Below the pieces are notes generated by a model. The model saw nothing but the letters and a program-made list of their open reading frames with translations, had not been told where the DNA came from and did no database searches. The position numbers and the translations under genes were made by a program. Positions 18,081 through 35,070 of a stretch of 64,000 bases of DNA are shown piece by piece. Location: IMG/VR virus record IMGVR_UViG_2912464834_000002; one strand, given 5' to 3'. Position 1 is the stretch's first letter. Every line of letters begins with the position of its first letter. Origin of the DNA: a virus. Taxonomy: Duplodnaviria; Caudoviricetes.

Positions 18081-19121
18081 ATGTTTCAGGAAAATTCAAT
18101 AAAATCAACGGGTAGGCGTGTTTCGGTGGCCCCGATGCTCGACTGGACCGACCGTCATTGCCGTTCGTTCCACCGGACGCTGACGCGCGATACGTGGCTG
18201 TATACGGAGATGATCACGACGGGCGCGCTGTTGTTCGGCGATGCCCAGCGGCATCTTGCGTTCACGCCGAACGAATCGCCGGTCGCGCTGCAGTTGGGCG
18301 GCAGCGAGCGCGACGATCTGGCGCGCGCGGCGAAGCTCGGCGAGCAGTGGGGCTACGACGAAATCAACCTGAATTGCGGATGTCCGTCCGAGCGTGTGCA
18401 GCGCGGCGCGTTCGGCGCGTGCCTGATGAACGAGCCGCAACTCGTCGCGGACTGCGTGAAGGCGATGCGCGATGCGGTGTCGGTGCCGGTTACGGTCAAG
18501 CACCGGATCGGTGTCGACGCGGTCGAGGACTACGCATTCGTGCGCGACTTCGTCGGCACGGTGGCCGAGGCTGGCTGCGAAACGTTCGTCGTGCATGCAC
18601 GCAATGCGATCCTGAAAGGGTTGTCGCCGAAAGAGAACCGCGAGATCCCGCCGCTCAAGTACGACTATGCGTATCGGTTGAAGCGCGATTTTCCTTCGCT
18701 CGAGATCGTCATCAACGGCGGCATCACGACGCTCGACGAGGTTGCGCAGCATCTCGAGCATGTCGACGGCGTGATGCTCGGCCGCGAGGCGTATCACAAC
18801 CCGTACGTGCTCGCGGAGGTCGATGCACGCTTCTATGGATCGACGGCAGCGACGCCGACGCGCGAAGAGGCCGAGGCGAAGCTGATCGAATACTGCGCGG
18901 CCGAACTGAAGCGCGGCACCTACCTCGGCGCGATCGTGCGGCATGCGCTCGGACTGTATCGCGGGATGCCCGGTGCACGTGGCTGGCGTCGTGTGCTGTC
19001 GGACAACAAGAAGCTTGCACGCGGCGATCTGGCCGTGTTCGACGAGGCGCGCGCGCATCTGAACGAGGCCGAAGAAGTTTTTGAAAAAAAAGCTTTGCAA
19101 GATTCAAAAGTGTTCGTATAA
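18081..19121 (+). CDS. dusA: tRNA-dihydrouridine(20/20a) synthase DusA
   Basis: VAPMLDWTDRHCR, NLNCGCPS.RVQ.G.FGACLM, GLSPKENREIPPL. Confidence 0.96.
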   Translation: MFQENSIKSTGRRVSVAPMLDWTDRHCRSFHRTLTRDTWLYTEMITTGALLFGDAQRHLAFTPNESPVALQLGGSERDDLARAAKLGEQWGYDEINLNCGCPSERVQRGAFGACLMNEPQLVADCVKAMRDAVSVPVTVKHRIGVDAVEDYAFVRDFVGTVAEAGCETFVVHARNAILKGLSPKENREIPPLKYDYAYRLKRDFPSLEIVINGGITTLDEVAQHLEHVDGVMLGREAYHNPYVLAEVDARFYGSTAATPTREEAEAKLIEYCAAELKRGTYLGAIVRHALGLYRGMPGARGWRRVLSDNKKLARGDLAVFDEARAHLNEAEEVFEKKALQDSKVFV

Positions 19122-21586: not shown

Positions 21587-22341
21587 GATGCGTCTCCTGC
21601 GCGGGCGGTGTCGTACTTGGCTTTGGCTTCGCGGTAGTGTTCGTCGCAGCAGAAGCCTTGGCCCATCCAAAGCGAGGACGACGGATTGCCGCAGAAGCAG
21701 GACGGCATGGGGTTCGCCTGGTTTGCGTTGAACCAGAACTGAGCATGCTTGCCGTGCGGCGCGTCGAAATCGGGGAGGTGGCCCGGACCGGCCAAGGTAT
21801 TGACGATCCAGCTCAGGCCCGCTTCAGCGCCGTTGCCGTGCTGCCACTCGATAACGGCGGACTGCATGGCAACGGTTTGGTCGTGGATGATGTCCGACAG
21901 CGTCTTGATGAGAGACTCCGACCGCACGACGTCGCGCGTCTTCTGTTCTTCACGCTTCAGACGCTCGCGCATCGATTCGTGCTTCTTTTCGCGCACATAC
22001 AACGCGACTGGACCGTCCTCGGTGTCGTAGATTTCGAGTAGGAGCCAGCCGTCGCCGGCCGGCGCGCTCGGCGTCCAGAAGCTGCAGTTCGCACTGTTGG
22101 ATGAGAAGTACTGGTCATACGTGTCGCAATCGACGTCGTTCTCCATATGGATGAACGCGGCTTCGATACCGAACGCAGCGAAGAACGTCTCGTAGTTCAC
22201 ATCCTCGTCGAGGTACGGGACGGCGGGGTGCGACAGCATGCCTTCCTCGTCGCGCACGATCTCGCGCGGCGTGAGAATCGCGCGGCGCAGCCCCTGGAGG
22301 TCGGCCGGCATAGCGGCGCGCGGGGTATCGGTGGTGGTCAT
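21583..22341 (-). CDS. Hypothetical phage protein
   Basis: 252 aa, translationally coupled on both sides. Confidence 0.7.
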   Translation of the reverse strand: MTTTDTPRAAMPADLQGLRRAILTPREIVRDEEGMLSHPAVPYLDEDVNYETFFAAFGIEAAFIHMENDVDCDTYDQYFSSNSANCSFWTPSAPAGDGWLLLEIYDTEDGPVALYVREKKHESMRERLKREEQKTRDVVRSESLIKTLSDIIHDQTVAMQSAVIEWQHGNGAEAGLSWIVNTLAGPGHLPDFDAPHGKHAQFWFNANQANPMPSCFCGNPSSSLWMGQGFCCDEHYREAKAKYDTARAGDAS

Positions 22342-22733
22342 TGTTCCCGGCCCTCCATGTCGGCAGCGGTGATGACATACTGGCGCACATTGACGACGCT
22401 GTAGAACGTCGGCTTCGCGTGCTTCTCGATCCAGCCGGCCAGCAGCGCATCGAGTTCGGCCCTTGCTTCTGGCATGACGTCCGGGTAGCCGTCCGCATAT
22501 TCGCCGACCTCGTCGTAGGCACGATTGCCCATCGTGTCAATCACGTCGTCCGCATCGCACAGATACTTGATCGAGATGGGTTCAACATCTCCGACGTACA
22601 CGACGTCGCCGATGGCGAGGTCCTCGTATGTGTCGAGCAGCTCATCGAGCTCGTCACACGTGAAATCCTCGTTGTTGCGGCTCCAGACGACGCGCACATC
22701 AGCTGCCTGGCTGTTTTCGGTTTGGGTGGTCAT
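22338..22733 (-). CDS. Hypothetical acidic phage protein
   Basis: 131 aa, GAGGAG RBS after the RT stop. Confidence 0.7.
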   Translation of the reverse strand: MTTQTENSQAADVRVVWSRNNEDFTCDELDELLDTYEDLAIGDVVYVGDVEPISIKYLCDADDVIDTMGNRAYDEVGEYADGYPDVMPEARAELDALLAGWIEKHAKPTFYSVVNVRQYVITAADMEGREQ

Positions 22734-22743
22734 GGGACACTCC

Positions 22744-23889
22744 TCAGAAGGTTCTCGTGAGATCGCGATCGACGGCTTTACCCAGCGAACGCAGAAGGTT
22801 CGCGAGGCTCGCGCGATCGTGGTGGCTGGCGGTTGCCTGCCGCAGCAGGCCGAAATACGAATTCGCGACCGGCATCAGATCGCCGGCTGGTGTCTCGGCG
22901 ACGCGCCGCAGGGCTTCGTTGCGCGTGCGTTTCCGCGTCTCGCGACGCCATGGCTTGATGACCTGACCGACGAAGTCGATGCCGCGGTCAATCGGCTGGA
23001 GGATGGTTTTGCGCGGGTTGATCCGCGCGCCGAGCTGCGTGGGCAGGAACGCGGTGACGTCGGCGAGGATCGCGTTCAAGCGCGCCGGCGACTCGTGCAG
23101 GAACACGAAATCGTCGACGTACCGGATGTAGTGCCGCGCGCGGAGCACATGCTTCGCGCGCTGATCGAGAACGTCGAGGTACACGTTCGCGAAGAACTGG
23201 CTCGACAGGTTGCCGATCGGAAGGCCAAGGTGCTCGGCTTGTTCCATCAGGCGCTTGTGCGGCGGCACGAGCTCGATCATTGCCGGGTCGCCGTGGTGTT
23301 CGAAGTCGGCCCGTGGATCGTGCATCAGCACGCGCTCGGTCAGCGCACGCCAAAACGGCTCGGAGATCTTCGCGAAGAGCAGGTCGAGCAGGATGCGCTT
23401 GTCGATGCTGACGAAGAAGTTCGCGAGATCGCACTTCAGGTAGAACGCGCGACGCGACCAGTTCTGCGTGATCGATCGCACCTTCGCTTCGAGGCGCTGC
23501 GCGGCGTATAGCGTGCCGCGGCCCTTGATGCAGGCGCATGAATCGGCGATGAAGGACCGCTCGAAGCTCGGGCCGATCCGGTTGTAAAGCAGGTGGTGCA
23601 CGATGCGATCGCGAAATGCGGCCGCCCAGACTTCGCGCGGCTTCGGTCTCGTGATGACGAAGCATTTCGAGCGGCCGGGTGTGTAACTGCCTTCGGCCAG
23701 CTCGTCGTACAGGCGTCGCAGGTTGCGTTCGAGCCGCATTTCGAACGCGAGCGCTGCATTGCTGTTTCGCTTCGTTCGCCGGCAGTCGAGATACGCTTCG
23801 ACCAGCTCGGCGAACGAAAATGGCCCTCGATCTGCGGACGGCTCGGGCGCGCAACTCGTTGTTCTGGTGGTTGTTGTTCTGGTTGCCAT
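22744..23889 (-). CDS. DGR reverse transcriptase
   Basis: KPREV.AA.FRDRIVHH, GLPIGNLSSQFFANVYL (DGR GxxxSQ signature), YIRYVDDF, GIDFVG; start uncertain, nearest in-frame ATG is 23889. Confidence 0.93.
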   Translation of the reverse strand: MATRTTTTRTTSCAPEPSADRGPFSFAELVEAYLDCRRTKRNSNAALAFEMRLERNLRRLYDELAEGSYTPGRSKCFVITRPKPREVWAAAFRDRIVHHLLYNRIGPSFERSFIADSCACIKGRGTLYAAQRLEAKVRSITQNWSRRAFYLKCDLANFFVSIDKRILLDLLFAKISEPFWRALTERVLMHDPRADFEHHGDPAMIELVPPHKRLMEQAEHLGLPIGNLSSQFFANVYLDVLDQRAKHVLRARHYIRYVDDFVFLHESPARLNAILADVTAFLPTQLGARINPRKTILQPIDRGIDFVGQVIKPWRRETRKRTRNEALRRVAETPAGDLMPVANSYFGLLRQATASHHDRASLANLLRSLGKAVDRDLTRTF

Positions 23890-23920
23890 TGTTGAAGTTC
23901 TGGTACCACGCCCAGCCGGA
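23830..23920 (-). repeat. DGR template repeat (TR)
   Basis: TCCGGCTGGGCGTGGTACCAGAACTTCAACAATGGCAACCAGAACAACAACCACCAGAACAACGAGTTGCGCGCCCGAGCCGTCCGCAGAT; nine AAY codons. Confidence 0.95.
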
Positions 23921-24082
23921 GGTATCGTGCGATCTACGTCGCCCGACCGATTTCTCAGTCGGGAAACTGCGCTGGACCTTTCCGCACGCCGGCGGCCGGT
24001 TTCCTCATTGCGCATGGCGGTGGCTTTGTGAGCCAGCGGCACGGCCAGATTGATATATCGCTCAGCCGCGAAGGCCTTGACC

Positions 24083-24439
24083 TTAGCGGAGCGGGCGACG
24101 GTTTGCGGCGTTCTTCCAGCCTGTGGCCTGCTTCCCGATGCTCGTCGTCTTCTCGACGGCAGCTGCGTAGCCGTCACGTGAGATCAGGCGCTTGTCCATA
24201 CTGAGACGAAGCAGCAGCTCGATCACCTGCAGACGCTCGAGCAATTCGACGAGGTGCGGAGCCTTGTCGGCCGCGACGTTCGCGCGGAACACCAACACCA
24301 TGATCTCGATGCACTCCGCGTTGATCTTCTCGCCGATGCTGCGCTTGAAGTCGCGGGGCATGTTCTTGACCAAAGTGGTGACATCATCGAGCAGCCCATA
24401 GGCCGCTCGATATATCGGAAGTTGGTTGTGCAGGGCCAC
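24083..24439 (-). CDS. avd: Accessory variability determinant (Avd-like four-helix bundle)
   Basis: 118 aa, LPIYR..Y.L, PRDFKRSIGEKI, IGKQ..GW; lies between targets and TR. Confidence 0.85.
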   Translation of the reverse strand: MALHNQLPIYRAAYGLLDDVTTLVKNMPRDFKRSIGEKINAECIEIMVLVFRANVAADKAPHLVELLERLQVIELLLRLSMDKRLISRDGYAAAVEKTTSIGKQATGWKNAANRRPLR

Positions 24440-24453
24440 GGCGGGTTAAATAA

Positions 24454-24918
24454 TCAAAAAACTGAAGGGATAAATCTGCGGACGGCGCGGGCGCGCAACT
24501 CGCAGTTCTGGCGGGTGTTGCGCTGGGTGCCATGGCTGAAGTCCTGGTACCACGCCCAGCCGGAGTTCGATTCGTGGCGTTCACCGGACCAGTAATAGGT
24601 CGGCTCGAACTCGGCCTTCAGGTTCGCGAACAGGAGCGATTGCTCCCGCCGCGTCGGCAGTTCGCCGCCACGTTCGGCGGCCCACGTCTTCGCCGCCTCC
24701 CAATCCAGATCTTCGGCTTCCCCCGGCAGGAGAATCAGGTAGTGGCTCAACGAGCCGTCTTCGAGAAGGATCTGCCCGGCGATGCGCTCGCCGGCAGCGA
24801 GCGGGACCGTGACGGCGTCGACGTAGTACTCGGTCGCCCGCGGTTGCTTCTTGAACTCGTCGATCATCGCGCCGATGCGCGCGTGATCTGCTTCAATCTG
24901 TTCGAGCGTGATCGTCAT
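24454..24918 (-). CDS. DGR target 1, DUF1566/CLec-like protein
   Basis: W..A..WA...GG.LPTR.E, YWS, AW...F..G...LRARAVRR; C-terminal VR. Confidence 0.9.
   Translation of the reverse strand: MTITLEQIEADHARIGAMIDEFKKQPRATEYYVDAVTVPLAAGERIAGQILLEDGSLSHYLILLPGEAEDLDWEAAKTWAAERGGELPTRREQSLLFANLKAEFEPTYYWSGERHESNSGWAWYQDFSHGTQRNTRQNCELRARAVRRFIPSVF
24474..24564 (-). repeat. Variable repeat VR1
   Basis: 11 mismatches to TR over 91 nt, all at TR adenines. Confidence 0.95.
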
Positions 24919-24948
24919 TGCATGCTCCGATTGTGAATGGCTGAAGGG

Positions 24949-25311
24949 TTAAATCGACAATCTGCGGACGGCGCGGGCGCGCAACTCGCTGCTCTGGAGG
25001 TCGCCGTACTGGAAGCCATTGGCGAAGTACTGGGACCACGCCCAGCCGGCGAAATCCGGGTCATCGTCCGGCGTGTTCGACCAGTACGCAGCCTTCTCGA
25101 ACAGGTCGCGGTGCTGCTCGTATGCGATCACGAGCTCGGCGCGCGTCGGCAGGTCTCCACCGCGGCTCTTGGCCCAGTCCATCTGTTCCTGCCACGTCCC
25201 GCGATCGTTCTCGCCGGGCAGCAGGATCGTGTGCGTGACGTCGCCATTCCTGTCGACGAAGCCGCCGAGGTAGACCTCGCCGTCGGCGAGCGTGGGAAGC
25301 TGGATCTGCAT
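24949..25311 (-). CDS. DGR target 2, DUF1566/CLec-like protein
   Basis: 120 aa from ATG 25311 (GGAGA RBS); same motifs as target 1. Confidence 0.9.
   Translation of the reverse strand: MQIQLPTLADGEVYLGGFVDRNGDVTHTILLPGENDRGTWQEQMDWAKSRGGDLPTRAELVIAYEQHRDLFEKAAYWSNTPDDDPDFAGWAWSQYFANGFQYGDLQSSELRARAVRRLSI
24960..25049 (-). repeat. Variable repeat VR2
   Basis: 14 mismatches to TR over 90 nt, all at TR adenines. Confidence 0.95.
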
Positions 25312-25320
25312 GGTTTCTCC

Positions 25321-25352
25321 GGAAAAGAGAAGGGCGCCGATTGGCGCCCTTC
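25321..25352 (-). terminator. Terminator-like hairpin directly upstream of the DGR cassette
   Basis: Minus strand GAAGGGCGCC-AATC-GGCGCCCTTC-TCTTTT. Confidence 0.65.
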
Positions 25353-25400
25353 GAATGCCGCGCGGACCGAGGTATGCCGCGCGGGATAGGCTCTGTTGAA

Positions 25401-26024
25401 TCAGCGGGGCATCCACTGCGTGCCGCGCACGATCCGGCCGACTGGTTCGAGCACGAGCACCTCGGATTCCTTCTCGCTGCGCACGAGTGCGCTGCCGCGA
25501 CGCTGGGCTTTCTCCAGCGATTCGTGGCGTTGCGGCTTGCAGTTGCGGCCGACCGTGACGAACAGCGGCGCGCGTGTGCCGACCGGGCCGAGCGTCAGCT
25601 CGTCGATGCGGGCCTCGAGAGCCGCGGCGTTCGCTCGCCAGGTGTCGGCTTTCTGCTGCGCGGCGTCGCGCTCGGCCGCGAGGCGTTCGACGTCGGCGCG
25701 CAGGTCCGCGATGACCCGTGCAACGTCGATGACGCCTGCGTTCGGGTCCAGCGACTTATCGATCAGGCCGACCGATGCCAGCGCCGGCGCGGCTGCGGCC
25801 GGCGGCGTGTCGCCAGGCGGCGGGGGCGCCTTCACTGCGCGCGCGAGCCAGTACACGTACTCGTTGCCGCCGCCCGCGCGCTTCTCACGCTCGACCAGCC
25901 CATCGCCAAGCATGCGGTTCAACTCCTTCGTCACGTCGAGCTGCGGAAGCCCGGTTCCGGTCGCCACGGCCTTCGCCGTGGCTTCCGACGTATCAGCGAG
26001 ATACCGCTCGATGTCCTCTCTCAC
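25401..26024 (-). CDS. Hypothetical protein, N-terminal winged helix plus coiled coil
   Basis: ATAKAVATGTGL....VTKELNRM..DGLVER. Confidence 0.65.
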   Translation of the reverse strand: MREDIERYLADTSEATAKAVATGTGLPQLDVTKELNRMLGDGLVEREKRAGGGNEYVYWLARAVKAPPPPGDTPPAAAAPALASVGLIDKSLDPNAGVIDVARVIADLRADVERLAAERDAAQQKADTWRANAAALEARIDELTLGPVGTRAPLFVTVGRNCKPQRHESLEKAQRRGSALVRSEKESEVLVLEPVGRIVRGTQWMPR

Positions 26025-27787
26025 GCTGCCTCCCGTACGGCGCTTGGCGCGGTGGCGCTGACCCGTCCATCCTCGACCCAGAACGCCTCGATGCCTTCGG
26101 GTAGCCCAGTGGGTGGCGTTTTCAGGCTCATGAACACGAGCGCCATGTCGACCTGGTCGGTGTATGCGAGGTCGTCGAGCCAGTACAGCAGCCGGTCACG
26201 CTCCGGCCCGACCAGCACATCGGCGCGATCAAGGACGAGCAGTTTCAGGCCCGAGAAGTGGCTGATCGCTGCGGCGATGTGCGCGTCGGCGCGCCAGCGT
26301 TCCGATTCCGACAGTAAGGCGTACGCACGACCGTTCGCGAGGATCTCCATTTCCGGCGTGATCGTGACGTCGGCCCATTCAGACAGCTCGGCGAGCGCGG
26401 TCAAGCGCTCATTCATCGGGGTCAGCGCTTCGCGCAGTAGGTCGGCCGGAATTCCGTTCGGCGCCAGCGCGTCGGCGATTGCTTCCCAGACGGCCACGTC
26501 CTGATACAGCGCGAAAGCCTTACCCGTGATCTCGATTGCGGCGGCGGCGCGGCGCTCGGCGTCGCATGCGGCCGCGATGTCCGTATCGAGCTGCGTGCGG
26601 CGTTGCATCAGCGCGCCGAGCTCGCGGCGCGCCGCGTCGATCGCCTCGCCCGATGAGTCGCCAGCGCCGGCAGTCGCTTCGTTCTCCAGGTCCTTCAGCT
26701 GCTTCGCCGCCGCGTCAGCGGCTTCAAGTTCCGCGCGGCGATTGCGGGCGGCGTTCTGCAGCACCGTGAGGCTGCGCTCGTACTCGGGCAGTTTCGCGAT
26801 CGCTTCATCATCGCGCGCGCCGGCTGCGGCGGCGGCCGTGAGCGCGCCATGCAGGAAACGCAGCAGCGCGCCGCATTCCGGGCAGCTGCATTCCGTGCCG
26901 GCCGGCACGGCGCCGGCGCGCACGCGCATTGCATCGACCTGCGGCTGGAACTCCGCGAGCTGGTCGTCGGCCAGCTGAGCCAGCTCGGCGGCTTTCGCGT
27001 AGCCGGATGCCTTGTCGCGCAGCGCGGCGATTTTCGAAGCGCGGGCGCGCGCGGCGGCTTCGCCGGCCTCGGCCGCGCCGATCTGGCGCTGCAGCTCGCC
27101 GACGTCGCCGTCGAGCGACGCGCGCTCGCCTTCGAGCTTGCGCAGCGCCGCCGTGTCGAAGTTGACCGGTGCCGGTCGCCAATCCGCGGCCTTCTGGCTG
27201 CCGTACGTTTCACCGGTCGTCGCACGCCATGCCTGCTTCGCGCCGCGCGCGCGATCCGCCGCTTCCTTCTGCGCGGCCTCGAAACCGGCGCGCAGCATCG
27301 GCGTGATCGCCTCGAGCTGGGCGTCGACGGCGAGCCTGATCACGCGGGCCGGAGACGTCAGCTTGTCGACCAGCCGCGAGCGAATTTCCTGGGCACCGAT
27401 CTTCACGCCCATCAATTCATACAGGAACGCGCGGCGCGCAGCGGCGTCGAGCTGCGCGAAGCGCTGCGCGTCGAGCACCAGCGGAAGGCGCGGATCTTCG
27501 GCGAGCTCGCGCTTCAGCTTACCCGACGGCAGCATGACGCTGTTCGCCTGCTCGCCGCACGCGACGACGATCTGACCAGCGTCCGAGCCTTCGGTGACGA
27601 GCGAGCCGTATTCCTTCTTCAGCGCGACGCGCACGGTGTCCCCGGTGAGCGCCATACGCACGGCTTCCTGCAGGCTGCTCTTGCCGGCGCCGTTCGGGCC
27701 GGCGAAGAGTGCGACGGGTTTCGACAGCCGCAGGTCCGCGGCGTGGATCCCGAGCACTTTCGAGACGTAGATGTCGGTGATCTTCAT
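26021..27787 (-). CDS. SbcC/Rad50-like coiled-coil ATPase
   Basis: Walker A GPNGAGKS, CPEC hook, LSESE signature, LLVLD. Confidence 0.85.
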   Translation of the reverse strand: MKITDIYVSKVLGIHAADLRLSKPVALFAGPNGAGKSSLQEAVRMALTGDTVRVALKKEYGSLVTEGSDAGQIVVACGEQANSVMLPSGKLKRELAEDPRLPLVLDAQRFAQLDAAARRAFLYELMGVKIGAQEIRSRLVDKLTSPARVIRLAVDAQLEAITPMLRAGFEAAQKEAADRARGAKQAWRATTGETYGSQKAADWRPAPVNFDTAALRKLEGERASLDGDVGELQRQIGAAEAGEAAARARASKIAALRDKASGYAKAAELAQLADDQLAEFQPQVDAMRVRAGAVPAGTECSCPECGALLRFLHGALTAAAAAGARDDEAIAKLPEYERSLTVLQNAARNRRAELEAADAAAKQLKDLENEATAGAGDSSGEAIDAARRELGALMQRRTQLDTDIAAACDAERRAAAAIEITGKAFALYQDVAVWEAIADALAPNGIPADLLREALTPMNERLTALAELSEWADVTITPEMEILANGRAYALLSESERWRADAHIAAAISHFSGLKLLVLDRADVLVGPERDRLLYWLDDLAYTDQVDMALVFMSLKTPPTGLPEGIEAFWVEDGRVSATAPSAVREAA

Positions 27788-27799
27788 GGGAGGTTCCGG

Positions 27800-28858
27800 T
27801 TAGTCGGCGCTGATCGGCCCGCGTGCGCGGCGCGGCGCACCGGCTCGCGGCTGTTGCTGAGCCTGTTCGGCAGCCGCGGTGATGGCACGCATGCGCGCCG
27901 ATGCCGCCGCGTTCAGGTCCGCCTTCGCGGCCTCGTCCGGCACACCGGCGATCGCGCTGCGCGCGAGGTCGAGGTCCTCGGCAGTCGCCGCGGACTCGAT
28001 GTCCTCGCGAATGCCGCGCACCAGGCCGTCGACGTCGAACTCAAACCCGCCTTGGCTCTGGCCGGCCTCGCCGCGAGGCTCGTCCTGGTCGTCGACCCGA
28101 TCGGCTCGGGTAGCTGCCGGTGGCGCGTCGGCCGCGCGCGAGTCCGTCGCGGGACCGGTCTGCGCCGGCTCGGCGCCGCGCGGTACTTCCTCCGCAGGTT
28201 GCGCGCGGCCGTTGCGCAGCTCTTCGAGCGTACTAGTCACTGCAACCGAGCCGTCGGCTCGCACTTCGACGGTATCGATCAGTTCTTCCTGTGACGAAAG
28301 TCCCATGCTGATCTCGGGGGCGTAGGCCCGCTGCCAGAACGCGGCCGAGCGATACACGAACATCTGGTCGGGCATCGTGAGCCACTTACTGCCGCTCTTC
28401 TTGTTCCAGCCTTCAGCCTTGACCATCTTCCAGTCGATCCAGGTGCCGTTCAGGCGCTCGCCAGTCGACTTCTCGATCGTCCATGCCCGACAGCCGAAGT
28501 CGTCACTGCCTTCGGTGCCGCGCCATTCGTAGCGCAGCGTCTCGAACCGGCCGCATGTGTTCACGCTGGCGATCAGGAACTTGCTCGACCAGCCGGGGTT
28601 GCCGTGGACGATGTATAGGTTCTGCATGACCATCAGCTCGTCGGCGCCGAGGCGGCGCGCGAGATTCAGCGCGATCATGCAGTTCGCGACGTTGTTCTGG
28701 TAGTGAGCGGGGACCAGCGACGAAGACGCGAAAGCCTTGGCGACGCGCTGCAACAGCTCGAAGCCTTGAAGATCGAAGAAGCCCGCGCGAACAGGCGGCA
28801 GCGATGCCTCGCGCGGCGCGGGATTGCGGATAGCTTCCAGGGTGGTAGGCGTGGACAT
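27800..28858 (-). CDS. RecT-like single-strand annealing protein
   Basis: LVP..YQ....NC.IAL, VMQNLY.VHG.PGWSS, W..MPDQM..YR...FW.R; start re-called. Confidence 0.7.
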   Translation of the reverse strand: MSTPTTLEAIRNPAPREASLPPVRAGFFDLQGFELLQRVAKAFASSSLVPAHYQNNVANCMIALNLARRLGADELMVMQNLYIVHGNPGWSSKFLIASVNTCGRFETLRYEWRGTEGSDDFGCRAWTIEKSTGERLNGTWIDWKMVKAEGWNKKSGSKWLTMPDQMFVYRSAAFWQRAYAPEISMGLSSQEELIDTVEVRADGSVAVTSTLEELRNGRAQPAEEVPRGAEPAQTGPATDSRAADAPPAATRADRVDDQDEPRGEAGQSQGGFEFDVDGLVRGIREDIESAATAEDLDLARSAIAGVPDEAAKADLNAAASARMRAITAAAEQAQQQPRAGAPRRARGPISAD

Positions 28859-28872
28859 GGAGATCTCGCGGG

Positions 28873-29682
28873 TTAATCGTGGAACTGGCAGGTGCCGTGG
28901 CGCGGGCAGTACTTCTTGTCGCACAGCAGCGATTTCGGGTTAGGGTAGAAGCGGCCGGACCGGAACATGTCCGCGGCGAACTGGATCAGCCCCGGCGTTT
29001 CCTCGGTGCCGACCATCACGCGCTTCGAGTTCGCGATCGGCGCGGTCGCGACTTCTGGCGTGCCCTTCGTTTTCAGGCCGATGATCTCGGCGGTGTCGCC
29101 GATTTCCTCGCCGGTCGTGTGCTCGTACAGCAGCTCGTATGTGCCGATCTGCGGGCCGTGCCCCTTCGTGACGGCCGCGCCTTTCTGGACTGCGGACGAT
29201 CCGCTCTTCAGGTCCGCGATGCCGACGCCGGCCGCCGAGCGGCGCACGCGCGCGCGATCCATCGTGCCTGTCAGGCGCACGATGACGCCGCCGCCGCAGT
29301 CGATTTCGAGCGGCTTCGTTTCCATCTCGACCGCGACGAAGTTGTAGCGCGGCGCGACCTCGAGGCAGTACTTCGTGGTCAGCGACAGGCCGATGCGTTC
29401 CGCGTCGGACATGCTCAGGTCGTCGCGCTCCGGATCGAACTCGTTCTCGGGGTCGCGCAGCTTGTCGACGAACGCGCCGGCCGCATCGTCGACGGTCAAG
29501 CCCGAGCCATCGAGCCGCGCCTGGTCGAACACGGCCGTGCCAGCGTGAATCGCGGTGCCGAGCGCGGCACGCAGGCCGACCACGTTGCGCATATTCAGGA
29601 GGTGGATGCCCTCCCAGCGGTATGCGCAGTCGAAGAGTGCGCCCCAGCTGGACGCGCGGACGGTGTAGACGGATGGGTTCAT
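28873..29682 (-). CDS. PD-(D/E)XK exonuclease (RecB/Cas4-like)
   Basis: GTAIH, GTMD, DLKSG, Q..TY; one N-terminal Cys plus C-terminal CDKKYCPRHGTC. Confidence 0.85.
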   Translation of the reverse strand: MNPSVYTVRASSWGALFDCAYRWEGIHLLNMRNVVGLRAALGTAIHAGTAVFDQARLDGSGLTVDDAAGAFVDKLRDPENEFDPERDDLSMSDAERIGLSLTTKYCLEVAPRYNFVAVEMETKPLEIDCGGGVIVRLTGTMDRARVRRSAAGVGIADLKSGSSAVQKGAAVTKGHGPQIGTYELLYEHTTGEEIGDTAEIIGLKTKGTPEVATAPIANSKRVMVGTEETPGLIQFAADMFRSGRFYPNPKSLLCDKKYCPRHGTCQFHD

Positions 29683-29846
29683 CAGGTTCTCACGAGGTTG
29701 GCGACGGCGCTGGTGCCATCGGCATTGAGGGCGGCGACGGCATACATGCACGCGGCGGCGATCAAGCTCGCGACGATGTAGCTGACGACTGGACTGCGCG
29801 CGTGGATGCGTTCGAGCAGCGCGCCGAGGAAATCGAAGGGAGTCAT
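29682..29846 (-). CDS. Small membrane protein
   Basis: 54 aa MTPFDFLGAL..., one TM segment; coupled overlaps. Confidence 0.55.
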   Translation of the reverse strand: MTPFDFLGALLERIHARSPVVSYIVASLIAAACMYAVAALNADGTSAVANLVRT

Positions 29847-30028
29847 CCGAGGCTCCGCAGGTAGGGGCCGGCGACCAGCGAGCCGTACCAGAGGGCCGCG
29901 ATCGCGACGCCGTAGGCGGCCATCCATGCGCCGGCCTCGGCAGCGCGGCGCAGGCGCGGCGCGCGCGCGGCGACGCGCAGTAGCGCGTTGTCGGTCGGCG
30001 CACGAGGAAGCGTGAGCGTGCGCATCAC
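29843..30028 (-). CDS. Small membrane protein
   Basis: 61 aa with hydrophobic C-terminal half. Confidence 0.55.
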   Translation of the reverse strand: MMRTLTLPRAPTDNALLRVAARAPRLRRAAEAGAWMAAYGVAIAALWYGSLVAGPYLRSLG

Positions 30029-30354
30029 AGACCCTCTCCGCAGACGCGCACGTGCCGCACGGGGTCAGCGACCGGGACAGGTGCCGAGTAACCGGCCTTG
30101 CCGAGCGCGGCGTCGACGACGGCACGGATGCCGGACGTGAGCACCGTTTTTGAGGCGACGAGTCGCAGCGCCGTGACGATGTCAGGCGCCGCTGCGATCA
30201 GCTGCGCGCGCGCCTCAGATTGTTCGCCCGTGCCGAGCACGATGCAGATTCGTTCGTCTTCGCCGAGCACGACGATGCAGTTGCCGTCGTAGTCGAGGTA
30301 ATCGCCGGGTTCGCACGCTTCCCACGGCCCTTGCGGATGGTTGGTCTGTCCCAT
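30025..30354 (-). CDS. Hypothetical phage early protein
   Basis: H..GPW...ARAQLIAAAPD motif common in phage early genes. Confidence 0.7.
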   Translation of the reverse strand: MGQTNHPQGPWEACEPGDYLDYDGNCIVVLGEDERICIVLGTGEQSEARAQLIAAAPDIVTALRLVASKTVLTSGIRAVVDAALGKAGYSAPVPVADPVRHVRVCGEGL

Positions 30355-30379
30355 GTGGTCTCTCGGTGTGGTGTGCGGC

Positions 30380-30487
30380 TCAGCCGCGGTGGTGGTCGTC
30401 TCGGCCCTTGTCCTTGATCGCGATGGCGATTTCGACGACGAGCCAGAAAGCGAGCAGCGCGAGCGCGCCGATAACGAAGCGGGCCAT
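30380..30487 (-). CDS. 35-aa single-TM peptide (not in ORF track)
   Basis: MARFVIGALALLAFWLVVEIAIAIKDKGRDDHHRG; starts 1 nt after the upstream stop. Confidence 0.5.
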   Translation of the reverse strand: MARFVIGALALLAFWLVVEIAIAIKDKGRDDHHRG

Positions 30488-30488
30488 G

Positions 30489-30914
30489 TCAGATCCCGCT
30501 CAAGAGGCGCAGGCCGGCCGCGCCGTGGTCTGCGCAGTGGCTGACGCCAGCGTTGCCGGGACCGAGTTCCGCGCCGCATGCTGAGCAGGTCGTCTGCGCG
30601 AAGCGCGGTGCGGCGGCGGCGAGGTCGGCGGCGGCGATACGACGCGCGATCTCGGCGGCGCGCGCGGCGACGAGGATGCCCCAGACCGTGTACACGTCCT
30701 CGATGCGGCCGCGTGCCAGCGCAGCGTCGATCACCGCGCAGTCGGTCGTCGAGATCTCGAGCCTGTCGAATGTGACGCCGTCGGCGATTTCTTCGTTGCG
30801 CTCGTCGCGCGCCAGCGCCGCATCGTCGGCCGCCGCTTGTTGTCGATCGGCGCTCGCATCCTTCCGTGCCGGGAGGGTGCGGACGCTTCCGCCCGTGGAG
30901 TTGTTCAGATGCAT
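30489..30914 (-). CDS. Hypothetical protein with C-terminal CxxC..HCxxH motif
   Basis: CSACG...SHCADH; GGAGG RBS. Confidence 0.65.
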   Translation of the reverse strand: MHLNNSTGGSVRTLPARKDASADRQQAAADDAALARDERNEEIADGVTFDRLEISTTDCAVIDAALARGRIEDVYTVWGILVAARAAEIARRIAAADLAAAAPRFAQTTCSACGAELGPGNAGVSHCADHGAAGLRLLSGI

Positions 30915-30947
30915 CGCACCCTCCATGCAGTTGAAATGGACGAAGGG

Positions 30948-31328
30948 TTAAATCGACAATCTGCGGACGGCTCGGGCGCGCAACTCGTCGTCCTGGCGGT
31001 AGCCGTCCTGGTAGCCAAGGTCGAAGTACTGGCACCACGCCCAGCCGGCGTAGCCCGGGTCCGTGTCGGGTTGGTTCGACCAGTAGGCGTCCGGCTCGAA
31101 CTCGCCGCGATGGTTTTCCAGCAGGAAGAGCATCTCGATGCGCGTCGGCAGGTCGCCGCCGATCGACTTCGCCCACTCCATCTGCGCCTGCCAGCTGGCG
31201 TCGTCGTTGTCGCCCGGAAGGAGCACGACGTGATTCTGTTCGCCGGCCGTGTTGGTGACGATGCCGACGTAGATCTCGCCCTCGGCGAGCTGCGGAACGG
31301 AAACAGCGGTGGGGGTGGGCGCGTTCAT
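30948..31328 (-). CDS. DGR target 3 (remote), DUF1566/CLec-like protein
   Basis: 126-aa paralog of target 2, with C-terminal VR. Confidence 0.9.
   Translation of the reverse strand: MNAPTPTAVSVPQLAEGEIYVGIVTNTAGEQNHVVLLPGDNDDASWQAQMEWAKSIGGDLPTRIEMLFLLENHRGEFEPDAYWSNQPDTDPGYAGWAWCQYFDLGYQDGYRQDDELRARAVRRLSI
30959..31048 (-). repeat. Variable repeat VR3
   Basis: 13 mismatches to TR over 90 nt, all at TR adenines. Confidence 0.95.
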
Positions 31329-31658
31329 AGAAACTCCAGAAAGGAAGAACTACTAAGTAAATTGAAGTGTGAAACGGCAAACGGTGCTTGCTGCTGCAGC
31401 TCTCACCGGTGGCGCCTCGAAGAACGAACCGCCGCCGGTCAGAACTGCTTTCACTCGCGCGCCCGGCTACTCCCGGCCGTGCCGGCTCCGGGCCGCGCGA
31501 GGTTGTGTGCCGATTACCACGCCATCGGTCACGTGTTGCTGGCTGTCTTGCATCAGGCTCACTCGGCGCACAGCGGTCTTCCGCTAAGTCCGTCCTGACT
31601 CACGACGCTGATCGCGCCGGCCGGTTGCTCCGCAGAAGCGGTCCCGGCTTACCTTCGA

Positions 31659-31671
31659 TTGTTAGAGAGCG
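31659..31671 (-). promoter_or_regulatory. boxA-like antitermination site
   Basis: Minus strand CGCTCTCTAACAA versus boxA GCTCTTTAACA; about 45 nt downstream of PL. Confidence 0.6.
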
Positions 31672-31718
31672 ATCCGCCTGGGCGGTGGCGCAGCGCGTTG
31701 TGTGCTGCGTTGGGAAGG

Positions 31719-31763
31719 ACTTTAGCGAAACGCGAAAGTTGTGTCTATAGCGAAACGCGAAAG
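31719..31763 (-). promoter_or_regulatory. PL promoter with two operators
   Basis: TAGACA-17-TAAAGT on minus strand; operators CTTTAGCGAAACGCGAAAG (31720) and CTATAGCGAAACGCGAAAG (31745). Confidence 0.8.
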
Positions 31764-31826
31764 TTTTGAGGAAAATTTGTAACAGCCTTGCTGGTTGCGG
31801 TTTTCCCGCATGTCTGCTGACGACAG

Positions 31827-31873
31827 TTGAAAGGTCGTCGAGTCTGGAGATAAACTACTGTACATGCATACAG
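31827..31873 (+). promoter_or_regulatory. Promoter with LexA box
   Basis: TTGAAA-18-TAAACT, then CTGTACATGCATACAG (31858-31873). Confidence 0.7.
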
Positions 31874-31903
31874 TGTTTGTGACGGAGAAAAGCGAGGTCG
31901 GGG

Positions 31904-32194
31904 ATGAGTCGAGAGGCGAGCGGGATGAAGCTGCGGTGCAGGGCAGGCGATACGGCGAGGGTGGTGCACTCGTCGAATGCATCCCTCATCGATAGGATTG
32001 TCACGGTCGTGCAAATGCACGAAGACGGCCGGTGGGAATGTGAGCTTATCGGCCGATCCGTGTTGGGATGTGCGGATGACGGGGAAGGACTGATTTTGAC
32101 CCGAGATTGGCTGTTCTCGGATGCGTATCTCGAGCCGCGGCTCGACGCGCGGGACGCAACGTCAGTTCCCTTTGCCGAACCGCTTCTTTGCTGA
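31904..32194 (+). CDS. LexA-controlled small protein (antirepressor candidate)
   Basis: 96 aa downstream of the SOS box, convergent with the repressor; function inferred. Confidence 0.55.
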   Translation: MSREASGMKLRCRAGDTARVVHSSNASLIDRIVTVVQMHEDGRWECELIGRSVLGCADDGEGLILTRDWLFSDAYLEPRLDARDATSVPFAEPLLC

Positions 32195-32560
32195 TTGCGC
32201 GTCGTCAGCGGACGTAGGCTGCGTCAAAACCCATCCAATGAACGATTCCACCTGCGCCCGCTGAGCTGGATTCAATTTCCCCCAGCCGGCTGGCACATCA
32301 GCAGGGATCGTGGCCGACGTTGTCACAGAATGGTCTGTATCGATCCAACCTACGGCTTTTCCGAGGTTGTCTTCAATTTTCCGGGCGGTCGCAGCGCGCA
32401 TGCCCCGCGGCCGGCCGGTCTTTGAATCCTTGGCGCCGTCTCGCAAGTTCGTGAACTGGGAATGAGACATCCCGCAAGCTGCCGCAGCAGCTGACGGTCC
32501 TCCGTACTCGGCCTCGATAAGCCGGAGGTTGTCCCGGCGGATTTCGTCGATGTCCTTCAT
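32162..32560 (-). CDS. CI-like repressor lacking a peptidase domain
   Basis: IRRDNLR.L, HTH, ARKIE..LG...GW.D; 132 aa; divergent from cro. Confidence 0.8.
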   Translation of the reverse strand: MKDIDEIRRDNLRLIEAEYGGPSAAAAACGMSHSQFTNLRDGAKDSKTGRPRGMRAATARKIEDNLGKAVGWIDTDHSVTTSATIPADVPAGWGKLNPAQRAQVESFIGWVLTQPTSADDAQSAKKRFGKGN

Positions 32561-32570
32561 ATATGGAATT

Positions 32571-32639
32571 CAATAGCAAAACGCTAAAGGCGTATATGCG
32601 CGAAACGCTATAGACTTTCCTTTCGCGTTTCGCTAAAGT
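32571..32639 (+). promoter_or_regulatory. OR operators (three) and PR promoter
   Basis: 19-bp sites at 32571, 32595 and 32620 (consensus CTTTAGCG-AAA-CGCTAAAG); TAGACT-17-TAAAGT at 32611-32639. Confidence 0.8.
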
Positions 32640-32644
32640 TCGGC

Positions 32645-32899
32645 ATGGACCTGAAAACCTACCTCTCCGCCGAGCGCGGGCGACTTGTCGCACTCAGCCG
32701 GGCGATTGGCGCTCATGCGTCAGACGTCAGTCGCTGGTCGAGCGGCGAGCGCCCCATCCCGATCACGTTCGGCTTGCCGATCGAGCGGGAGACTCATGGT
32801 CTCGTGACGAGGCTCGAAATGTTTCCGAGGCAGGTCATCGAACGTGTCTGGCCCGACCTGATTGAGCAGGCCAAAAAGCGACCGAAGGAGGCGAAGTGA
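32645..32899 (+). CDS. Cro/YdaS-like regulator
   Basis: LSRAIG....VSRW..G.RPIP.....IERET.G.VTR..WPDL. Confidence 0.85.
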   Translation: MDLKTYLSAERGRLVALSRAIGAHASDVSRWSSGERPIPITFGLPIERETHGLVTRLEMFPRQVIERVWPDLIEQAKKRPKEAK

Positions 32900-33123
32900 A
32901 GAAGACCCGCGTTTTCAAGCCGGTTCGCGTCGAGCGGAAACCGTCCTCCCGCTGGCTCGCGCGCCCGAGCGTCGAGCGCGAGAAGTGGTGGCGGTTCGCC
33001 GAGGACAGCTTTGCCAGGGTGAAGGCGCTCCATGAACGGCCGTATCCCGAAGGCGCTGAGCCGAACGCATTCAACGCCTTCGGGCAGCCGGTCAATGAAC
33101 GCACCGATACCAAGGAGGCGTGA
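32896..33123 (+). CDS. Hypothetical protein
   Basis: GTGA-coupled to cro, AAGGAGG RBS. Confidence 0.55.
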   Translation: MKKTRVFKPVRVERKPSSRWLARPSVEREKWWRFAEDSFARVKALHERPYPEGAEPNAFNAFGQPVNERTDTKEA

Positions 33124-33413
33124 TGCCGCATGCCTTTCAGCTGCAGATCCACTTCGAAACAGCACAGATCGAATCCCGGCTGACCGAGCTGTCAGAACTT
33201 CTTCAACGCCTTCCGGAGCGCGTCGCCGATGGCATCCGAAAACGCATCGCCGATCTTCCTGACCAGCTCGTCGATTTCGCCCTTAGTGAAGGTCTTCGAA
33301 CAGCCGGCGCAGGTCGCTGCGATGTTCGGGTCTGCTCCATCCGGCTGTTCTCCCCCGTGCTCGATGAATTGTGTGCCGCCGCACGCGGGGCAGCGGATTT
33401 GAACGGTTCCTAA
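33120..33413 (+). CDS. Hypothetical protein
   Basis: AAGGAGG RBS, coupled; overlaps an antisense ORF. Confidence 0.45.
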   Translation: MMPHAFQLQIHFETAQIESRLTELSELLQRLPERVADGIRKRIADLPDQLVDFALSEGLRTAGAGRCDVRVCSIRLFSPVLDELCAAARGAADLNGS

Positions 33414-33428
33414 GTTGTGTGTGGTCAT
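33192..33428 (-). CDS. Small zinc-ribbon protein (antisense)
   Basis: CPACG...CAGC plus amphipathic C-terminal helix. Confidence 0.55.
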   Translation of the reverse strand: MTTHNLGTVQIRCPACGGTQFIEHGGEQPDGADPNIAATCAGCSKTFTKGEIDELVRKIGDAFSDAIGDALRKALKKF

Positions 33429-33524
33429 GCGAACCCCGTTGTGAGTGGGTTGGGGAAGTAGAGAGCTTCGATTCTCGCATAGCGGTGGTTCGCATCTTTT
33501 TCAATAAAAATCGGGGCTATCGTC

Positions 33525-33749
33525 ATGTCAAGACGCGCCGAATTTCGAAACGAAGTAAAAACGCGGCTGCGTGATCGCGTGTACGACGCGCTCCAGTTCT
33601 ACAAGCAGCTGCACGGCATCGATTCCGACTCCGCCGCGCTCAACCGCATCGCGGAAGTGGCGCTGTTTGGCGTTGTGGGTACTTTGCCCGTACAGCTCGC
33701 GGGCGTCAGTGCCGATGTGGGACAGACTGGCCCGCAGGTGAATGCATGA
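33525..33749 (+). CDS. Small DNA-binding protein (CII position)
   Basis: 74 aa, EVKTRL..RVYDAL; ribbon-helix-helix-like. Confidence 0.55.
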   Translation: MSRRAEFRNEVKTRLRDRVYDALQFYKQLHGIDSDSAALNRIAEVALFGVVGTLPVQLAGVSADVGQTGPQVNA

Positions 33750-33958
33750 CAGGTCGCCGCGTGGAGCAGGCGGTCCTGCTGCCAGTGGCCGAAGCAGCTG
33801 ATCTGGCAATGCGAGCGGCGGCGGAGGGCATCCCCGTTACCGATTTCCTGGGAATTCAGGTGCTACGCGGCGCGTACGGCGCCATGCACCCGCTCGTCAT
33901 CGAGTTCGAGAAGCGGCCCAAAGCGGCCCAATCTGGGACCGATGGTGAGGAGCAATAG
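33746..33958 (+). CDS. Hypothetical protein
   Basis: 70 aa, coupled. Confidence 0.55.
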   Translation: MTGRRVEQAVLLPVAEAADLAMRAAAEGIPVTDFLGIQVLRGAYGAMHPLVIEFEKRPKAAQSGTDGEEQ

Positions 33959-33960
33959 CC

Positions 33961-35070
33961 GTGAACGACCTCCCGAATCCTCTCACCGCAGTCGACTGCG
34001 ACCTGCGCGATTTCGCGTTCATGCCGCTCGACGTCGTGCGCCTGCGTGACAGCGACATCGCGGCGTTGTCGACCGCAGATGAGTTCCGCTCCGCAGTGCT
34101 GCTCTGGTGCGCCGCGTGGCACCAGGTGCCCGCTGCGTCTCTTCCGGACGACGATCGCGTGCTCGCGCAGCTAGCCGGGTACGGCCGCGTCGTTGCCGAA
34201 TGGAAGAAAGTGCGCGACGGCGCGCTGCGCGGCTGGGTGAAGTGCGCGGACGGCCGGCTGTATCACCCCGTGGTCGCCGAGAAGGCGCGCGATGCGTGGG
34301 CCGCGAAGCACGAGCAGCGCTACAAGACGGAGTGTGCTCGCATCAAAAAGCACAACCAGCGTCACGAAATCCAGATCGAATTTCCCTCGTTCGAAGAGTT
34401 CTTGTCCCCCGAATATCGCGATCCTGTCCCGAGGGACAAACAGAAGTTGTCCCCGGGGACAGGCGGCAAGCGTCCCCCGGGACAAACAGGGGGTGTCCCC
34501 CAAACCGTCCCCGGGGAAACAGCTTCCAAGGGACAGGGAGAGGGAGAAGTAAACCTAAAAGCAAGCGGCGGCGGCACAGCACAGGCAGTAGCGGACGATG
34601 CGCAGAACGCCGCCGCCGCGTTCGTCGAGATCCTTCGCTCGAGTGGCGTCGGCTTTGCCGCCGACGACGAGCGTGTGCGCAGCTGGCCGTCGCTCGGCGC
34701 GACGCCCATCGACCTGCGCACGGCGATCCAGGTCGGACTGCTGCGCCGGAAGCGCGAGGGCTCGACCCAGCCGCTGAACATCGGGCTGCTGAACTCGCTG
34801 CTGCCCGAGGCGATCGCGCAGCGCACCGGCCGCGCCGGTACCGCTTCGTCTGGCGCGGCTGCCGGCCCGTGGCATACGACCTGGCCCGGCATCGTCGCGC
34901 ACGGTCGCACGCTCGGCCTCGAGCAGGGCGAGCACGAGACGTGTCCCGATTTCAAGTTGCGAGTGCTGCGCGCCGCGGGCGATGGCCCGTGGTGGGACGA
35001 GCACAACCGCGCGTTTCGCAACAGCGCCGGCCCGGTCGCGGCTGGCTCGATCCTGGAGGCAGGGCGATGA
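33961..35070 (+). CDS. Replication initiator, DUF1376/YdaU-like
   Basis: FMPLDV.RLRDS, SLPDDD..LA.LAG, DGRLYHPVV; internal iterons. Confidence 0.82.
   Translation: MNDLPNPLTAVDCDLRDFAFMPLDVVRLRDSDIAALSTADEFRSAVLLWCAAWHQVPAASLPDDDRVLAQLAGYGRVVAEWKKVRDGALRGWVKCADGRLYHPVVAEKARDAWAAKHEQRYKTECARIKKHNQRHEIQIEFPSFEEFLSPEYRDPVPRDKQKLSPGTGGKRPPGQTGGVPQTVPGETASKGQGEGEVNLKASGGGTAQAVADDAQNAAAAFVEILRSSGVGFAADDERVRSWPSLGATPIDLRTAIQVGLLRRKREGSTQPLNIGLLNSLLPEAIAQRTGRAGTASSGAAAGPWHTTWPGIVAHGRTLGLEQGEHETCPDFKLRVLRAAGDGPWWDEHNRAFRNSAGPVAAGSILEAGR
34425..34519. repeat. Iteron-like palindromes (putative phage ori)
   Basis: YGTCCC-NN-GGGACA at 34425, 34448 and 34471 (23-bp period), with partial copies at 34494 and 34506. 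Confidence 0.75.

Follow-up and report, generated by a model that had tools for sequence, protein, structure and literature searches.

Prophage setting and gene order

The window (the whole stretch of DNA analysed, 64,000 nt) holds a lambda-like prophage within the 3.8-Mb contig C1 of a four-contig, 8.6-Mb Burkholderia genome, and the region described here is probably its immunity and early-left part. Genes were called by GC3-guided ORF calling together with family scans (Pfam, PHROGs, NCBIfam), and all features lie on the minus strand unless another strand is given. The leftward operon starts with target 3 of a DGR, followed by a 141-aa gene, a 153-aa gene, a PD-(D/E)XK exonuclease and RecT, and continues with an SbcC-like ATPase, a MarR-like gene, target 2, target 1, Avd, the RT-15 RNA, the template repeat (TR) and the RT. 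A 132-aa repressor gene (32162-32560; phrog_12107 transcriptional repressor, E = 3e-49) has a Cro/YdaS-like gene on the plus strand (32645-32899) to its right.

On the plus strand a 96-aa gene (31827-32194) runs divergently from the early-left promoter PL and shares 33 nt with the 3' end of the repressor gene. This small gene is kept in phage Magia (gp60), and a promoter-like TTGAAA-18-TAAACT lies upstream of it, as does a palindromic CTGT-N8-ACAG at 31858-31873 that resembles a LexA box.

The PL promoter and its operators

A consensus scan placed PL (TAGACA-17-TAAAGT) at 31719-31747, with a predicted start at about A31711. Three promoter-like sites were found in the 1.5-kb region 30800-32300 compared to 0.3 expected, PL being the sole one on the minus strand. 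Over PL lie two 24-nt direct repeats with a common 17-bp core, ACTTTCGCGTTTCGCTA. The operator OL2 (31748-31764), a 17-bp repressor site just 5' of the -35 hexamer, is an exact copy of this core; OL1 (31723-31739), also a copy, sits between the -35 and -10 hexamers and overlaps the -10, and the PR operator is placed likewise. The same motif occurs in the OR region (32574-32635), within the 85-bp gap between the repressor and cro genes, at 32619-32635 (one mismatch) and 32574-32590 (three mismatches). The window thus has four matches, compared to 0.18 expected, a number reached by 0/100 shuffles. PR has the TAGAC-N-TAAAGT build of PL, with an operator between TAGAC and TAAAGT, and the operators common to PL and PR/PRM adjoin the repressor gene, as in a lambdoid OL/PL region. 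Since the operator core recurs in the repressor/cro gap and PR is of the same build, PL is regarded as a bona fide repressor-controlled early promoter. An initial annotation of this DNA had proposed a TAGACA-17-TAAAGT promoter under two operators; it holds at the same coordinates and gains from the recurrence of the motif in the cI/cro region. The 132-aa repressor would bind the same 17-bp operators at PL and PR/PRM, and lifting of repression would allow a PL transcript to begin at about 31711.

Between the end of the PR -10 hexamer (TAAAGT) at 32639 and the cro ATG at 32645 there is so little room (32634-32647, plus strand) that the cro mRNA may be leaderless or nearly so.

Transcript start and distribution of the leader

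The 383 nt from the start to target 3 form a leader of mosaic build whose modules recur in many Burkholderia prophages. Of 95 genomes of the genus, 32 contain a homologue of the leader, as do several phages, among them Magia, Bups phi1, phiE125 and KS9. Homology in about 20 aligned loci begins 5-8 nt past the -10, at CCAACGCAGC, and the sequences upstream are unrelated except for clear -35 and -10 hexamers. The abruptness of this boundary, found below immunity regions of many kinds, argues strongly on comparative grounds that transcription starts at about 31711. The PL transcript very probably begins near that position, in agreement with the start near 31712 suggested initially.

A neighbouring prophage in the same genome (G000:C1:2584674-2589237) has its own leader module 1 and core, about 1.7 kb upstream of its targets. 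Some relatives (L003:2950-3230, L010 and L021) carry an extra conserved insert of 100-330 nt (GGAGCCGGAATGCGCAGGCTGATGCGC...) between the core and the long hairpin, which looks structured.

Structure of the leader RNA

Taken whole, the leader has a better predicted fold than 99 of 100 shuffled versions. RNAalifold supported three modules in it, the first two of which, module 1 and the core, were also controlled by shuffling and sliding. Module 1 (31716-31600; 19 loci) has 21 pairs, nine of them compensatory, which 0/500 shuffles reach. It opens with hairpin 1 (31689-31709; CGCAGC paired with GCTGCG), which shows A-U to G-C covariation in seven of the 19 aligned sequences, and hairpin 2 (31674-31685; CCGCC with GGCGG), whose pairs are mostly invariant. 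Hairpin 3 (31620-31648), which has the form GCCGG-GA-CCGC-loop-GCGG-AGCAA-CCGGC, occupies the position of boxB; its outer stem covaries, its internal loop is conserved and its apical loop is variable. Hairpin 4 (31603-31619) shows G-C to U-A covariation in six sequences. The covarying core (31454-31528) is composed of hairpin A (31528-31510) and the long hairpin B (31501-31454), and has 24 pairs, 14 of them compensatory, across 20 loci including other genera; again 0/500 shuffles reach this, and slid controls gave 2-7 pairs. Finally, a long imperfect hairpin of 51 nt (31397-31447; -35.9 kcal/mol, z = -6.3) keeps 20 pairs in 11 loci, five of them with compensatory changes. Invariant G-U pairs agree with the minus-strand sense of the RNA. 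The leader is thus a well-supported, covarying structured RNA that is absent from Rfam: a search at E <= 1 over 22000-34000 gave no match in it, nor was any terminator-like site found inside it. The initial annotation had recognized the long imperfect stem as an element leading into target 3. The stem is present, strongly folded and conserved, but it is part of the leader and precedes the 141-aa gene in relatives.

In its proposed working form the leader would be an untranslated and tightly folded RNA with two hairpins, an exposed boxA, two further hairpins, the core, the long hairpin and an open AU-rich ribosome-binding stretch. The Shine-Dalgarno GGAG of target 3 (31334-31337) lies in this unstructured AU-rich stretch, and the fold around it is weak (-4.5 kcal/mol, z = -0.6).

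One may ask whether the leader acts chiefly after transcription, by controlling translation of target 3 or of the 141-aa gene, by RNase III processing or as a stable small RNA, with boxA of minor importance or none. The flanking genes are much less conserved than the core and the long hairpin, the core is found apart from the first module in some loci, and the long hairpin, with its roughly 20 pairs, has a size that could suit an RNase III substrate. The predicted fold, however, does not sequester the ribosome-binding site, and a single-stranded boxA is held at a fixed place near the start in most loci, as described below; we consider a chiefly post-transcriptional role doubtful.

A second question is whether target 3 is really the first product of PL, as it would not be if a leader peptide were translated or if target 3 had a promoter of its own. 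The leader does contain sense ORFs of 33-34 codons, one of which, of 33 aa (MQDSQQHVTDG...), recurs in four relatives. In four loci, however, this ORF no longer has its ATG, and in the window its frame is shifted; variation in the leader falls in hairpin loops and compensatory pairs rather than in third codon positions. Nor was any minus-strand promoter-like site found from 31719 to 31328, and we regard a different first product as very improbable. Leader genes in sense or antisense orientation, the latter annotated in Magia, were rejected on account of frame shifts, the lost start codon and the pattern of compensatory pairs. The initial annotation had taken 31330-31715 to be free of a translated ORF, and by sequence comparison no conserved leader ORF was found there.

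boxA and antitermination

A boxA-like element, CGCTCTCTAACAA (31659-31671), is predicted to be single-stranded between hairpins 2 and 3. It differs by one mismatch (T6C) from the consensus GYTCTTTAANA (PMC5725501). In about 19 of 24 related loci the alignment has a boxA match within one mismatch at this very position, perfect in five of them; of 20000 random 120-nt pieces drawn from the window, 0 have such a match. When the window was scanned by pattern on its own, boxA did not rise above chance, so the case for the element rests on conservation, and on this basis the boxA-like stretch pointed out initially is upheld. In the six rrn operons of the host the leader boxA reads GCTCTTTAAAAA and the spacer boxA GTTCTTTAACAA. 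It is known that boxA acts outside rRNA operons too, and that an E. coli boxA double mutant, C4T/T6C, is non-functional (PMC5725501). Given that mutant and the T6C change in the window, Nus binding is not assured.

The scans of Pfam, PHROGs and NCBIfam gave no match to an N-like protein, in line with the initial annotation, which had recognized none, and among 25 loci there was neither a recurring N-like first gene nor a consistently basic one. No conserved boxB loop was found, the apical loop of hairpin 3 varying freely among loci. A nutR-like second copy was likewise missing from the window by pattern scan and by a covariance model, which found a single copy. The next-best covariance hit (18214-18334, 17 bits) looks protein-coding and was read as chance.

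These results bear on the possibility of a true N-type system, in which a phage protein of unrecognized family, e.g. the 141-aa product or that of a different early gene, would bind hairpin 3 beside boxA and form an N-like complex. The order of boxA, a 10-nt spacer and a hairpin is that of lambda nut, boxA is slightly off consensus as lambda's is, and a small conserved gene, the 141-aa one, follows the leader in most relatives. Against this stand the unconserved apical loop, the lack of an N family in the three databases and of a second nut-like site in the right operon, a 141-aa model that folds as a helical hairpin and lacks an arginine-rich N-terminus, and the unrelated first genes of loci that have the first leader module alone. 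We therefore think an N-type system unlikely.

Among the hallmarks of lambda N/nut, boxA is present, but a conserved boxB loop, an N protein and a nut site in both operons were not found; one hallmark of the rrn type, a near-consensus boxA in untranslated RNA near a promoter, is present. Because no N-like protein, conserved boxB loop or second nut-like site was found, antitermination by host Nus factors (rrn-type) or by RNA only fits better than lambda N. In the former case boxA would recruit a host NusB/NusE-NusA-NusG complex as in rRNA operons, and this complex might shield the long untranslated leader from Rho.

Target 3 is a diversified DGR target

Target 3 (30948-31328) encodes a 126-aa stand-alone DUF1566/Lcl_C protein (Pfam Lcl_C, E = 3e-4) that is 58% identical to target 2 over the full length. 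Its AF2 model (pLDDT 83) predicts a C-type lectin fold with the VR at the C-terminus; among solved structures it matches the C-terminal domain of Legionella Lcl best (TM 0.63) and C-type lectin domains next, with weak E-values throughout. The family comprises at least 1446 proteins, and those that are named are called DUF1566 or Lcl C-terminal domain. Inspection revealed no signal peptide.

VR3 (30959-31050) and the TR (23830-23921) differ at 14 positions, 13 of which are TR adenines and the remaining one at the 5' edge. With regard to an IMH and flanking cis signals, which are putative here, VR3 is identical to the TR over its final 28 nt; past CGCAGAT the two flanks part, and the sequence downstream is common to VR2 and VR3. 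The distance of 7.0 kb between TR and VR3, with the exonuclease, RecT and SbcC-like genes in between, is as the initial annotation had described it. The RT (phrog_1423, E = 2e-112) and Avd (bAvd) are in the same element as the TR, and the RT-15 RNA adjoins the TR. Four orthologues, those of the window, Magia, G001 and G021, differ from one another at 11-19 of 27 adenine sites compared to 0-2 of 65 other sites. Differences confined almost entirely to adenine sites imply repeated diversification, and target 3 is, as judged from these sequence comparisons, a genuine and repeatedly diversified DGR target.

The RT-15 RNA (Rfam, 161 bits) was found at 23918-24100, between avd and the TR. The neighbouring prophage, about 21-26 kb before the window start, carries a second DGR with an RT 91% identical, a TR 99% identical (91/92) and two adjacent VRs; in a genome with two near-identical TRs and five VRs, cross-use seems possible.

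Insertion of target 3 ahead of a conserved first gene

In most relatives the first gene after the leader is a homologue of the conserved 141-aa gene (30489-30914); the leader is directly followed by it in G014, G051, G082, G015, G044, G065 and Bups phi1. The window has at this point an insert of about 400 bp (about 30942-31345) that comprises a ribosome-binding site, target 3 and a target-2-like 3' flank. Gapped global alignment scattered the borders of the insert, and they were therefore read by eye and are good to about 10 nt. By this comparison target 3 is a paralogue of target 2 inserted ahead of the conserved first gene of the family. Of the prophages searched for an RT, those with a first-position target 3 (the window, Magia, G001 and G021) all bear a DGR, and RT-negative relatives are without target 3. 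In G046 a diverged copy, some 0.7 kb beyond the leader, seems to occupy the same place. G065, by contrast, has an RT and no first-position target.

Lying between the leader and the usual first gene, target 3 is by its position the first protein from PL. The initial annotation had put target 3 in the position of lambda N: it is indeed the first ORF here, but most relatives have the 141-aa gene in that place. An immediate host-interaction role, which had also been suggested, is conjecture.

The 141-aa gene has 162 Burkholderia homologues, all named hypothetical. Its product is modelled as a helical hairpin with a C-terminal conserved CxxC...CxDH knuckle, and no family, solved relative or structural match was found. 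A weak row for lambda Gam (E = 8) was not taken as evidence. The first ATG, at 30926 (30489-30926, minus strand), is part of a Shine-Dalgarno GGAGGG, and the homologues start at ATG 30914.

A terminator ahead of the DGR cassette

An intrinsic terminator with a 10-bp GC stem and a U tract (25329-25352; -22.9 kcal/mol, z = -5.0) lies just before target 2 and the DGR cassette, directly 5' of the target 2 ribosome-binding site, and is kept in G001 and G021. Target 3 and the recombination genes are upstream of it, and target 2, target 1, avd, TR and RT are downstream. With this placement an antitermination leader would have a plausible job. In lambda, N precedes tL1, and the terminator after target 3 stands as tL1 does after N, which makes the comparison with lambda N better than the initial annotation could tell. 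A sigma-70 consensus scan found no minus-strand promoter-like site between PL and the RT, although a promoter of the DGR cassette could be missed by such a scan.

Target 2 probably starts at ATG 25311 (120 aa) and not at GTG 25416. A sub-threshold Rfam match to BjrC68 at 25322-25396 (E <= 1, 22000-34000) is explained by the strong intrinsic terminator before target 2 (25311-25403).

A model for early-left expression

We favour, with a probability of roughly 60%, the reading that a repressor-controlled PL gives rise to a structured boxA leader that acts in Nus-type antitermination, with the inserted target 3 expressed first and the DGR cassette by read-through. Target 3 would be made first from PL, upstream of the terminator, and the antiterminated polymerase would pass the terminator at 25352-25329, so that production of targets 1 and 2 and of the mutagenesis machinery would depend on read-through. 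The sequence comparisons show the promoter and its operators, the comparative place of the start, the RNA fold, the conserved boxA, the diversified VR3, the insertion and the terminator; that Nus factors are recruited and polymerase antiterminated, when the genes are expressed and what target 3 might do belong to the proposed model.

Phage DGRs are generally held to retarget tail fibres. All three targets here are small stand-alone lectin-fold proteins in an early operon, which points to an intracellular, early-acting role, and the promoter-proximal slot is taken by one target in several DGR-bearing prophages. A bolder, joint proposal is that the DGR diversifies small cytoplasmic early proteins, one of them first behind PL, and that the boxA leader is a new protein-independent or Nus-only antiterminator RNA of Burkholderia phages; we hold this combination to be improbable. 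If it were true, a hypervariable binder would meet the host within minutes of infection or induction and might neutralise variable host defence or takeover targets, and the DGR would serve adaptive counter-defence rather than receptor switching. A leader with a ribosomal-type boxA, for which no N was found, offers in any event a tractable case for antitermination in non-enteric lambdoid phages.

Comparison with known systems

The arrangement resembles lambda pL-nutL-N in its repressor-controlled leftward promoter, the operators shared with PR, a boxA near the start followed by a hairpin, a long stem preceding the first gene and, farther along the operon, a terminator. It differs from lambda in that no N, conserved boxB loop or nutR was found, in the length of the leader (about 380 nt) with its extra conserved hairpins, and in having a DGR target as the first gene. 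With rrn Nus antitermination it has in common a near-consensus boxA in a long untranslated RNA after a hairpin, as in the rrn leader of the host; here, in contrast, boxA is in a phage early operon and carries the T6C change, and Nus binding is putative.

HK022 is a lambdoid phage without N whose putL, a folded leader RNA, lies just past PL, and whose nun, a non-N gene in the N position, deals with a competitor. The likeness would lie in a folded leader just after PL and a non-N gene in the N position with no N; in contrast to the present leader, put has no boxA and acts directly on polymerase.

The layout is the same in Magia (MT701587), which has the repressor, the divergent small gene, a homologous leader, a 126-aa lectin-fold gene (gene 57), the 141-aa homologue and recombination genes. 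Its genome paper already named genes 47 and 57 DGR targets, so that the orthologue of target 3 was known as such (PMC7883833). The paper and the record make no mention of an early promoter, boxA or structured leader, and the record annotates antisense ORFs inside the leader. Non-adjacent targets in the same prophage are common among DGRs, and in the DUF1566 class about half of the targets consist of a short domain standing alone (Wu et al. 2018, PMC5758913), so that these traits were known too. New are the promoter-proximal target behind a boxA leader, the evidence for its insertion, the terminator and the leader RNA itself. Compared to the targets of that survey (PMC5758913), all three targets and the DGR are here located in an early recombination operon, not near tail genes, and one target is promoter-proximal.
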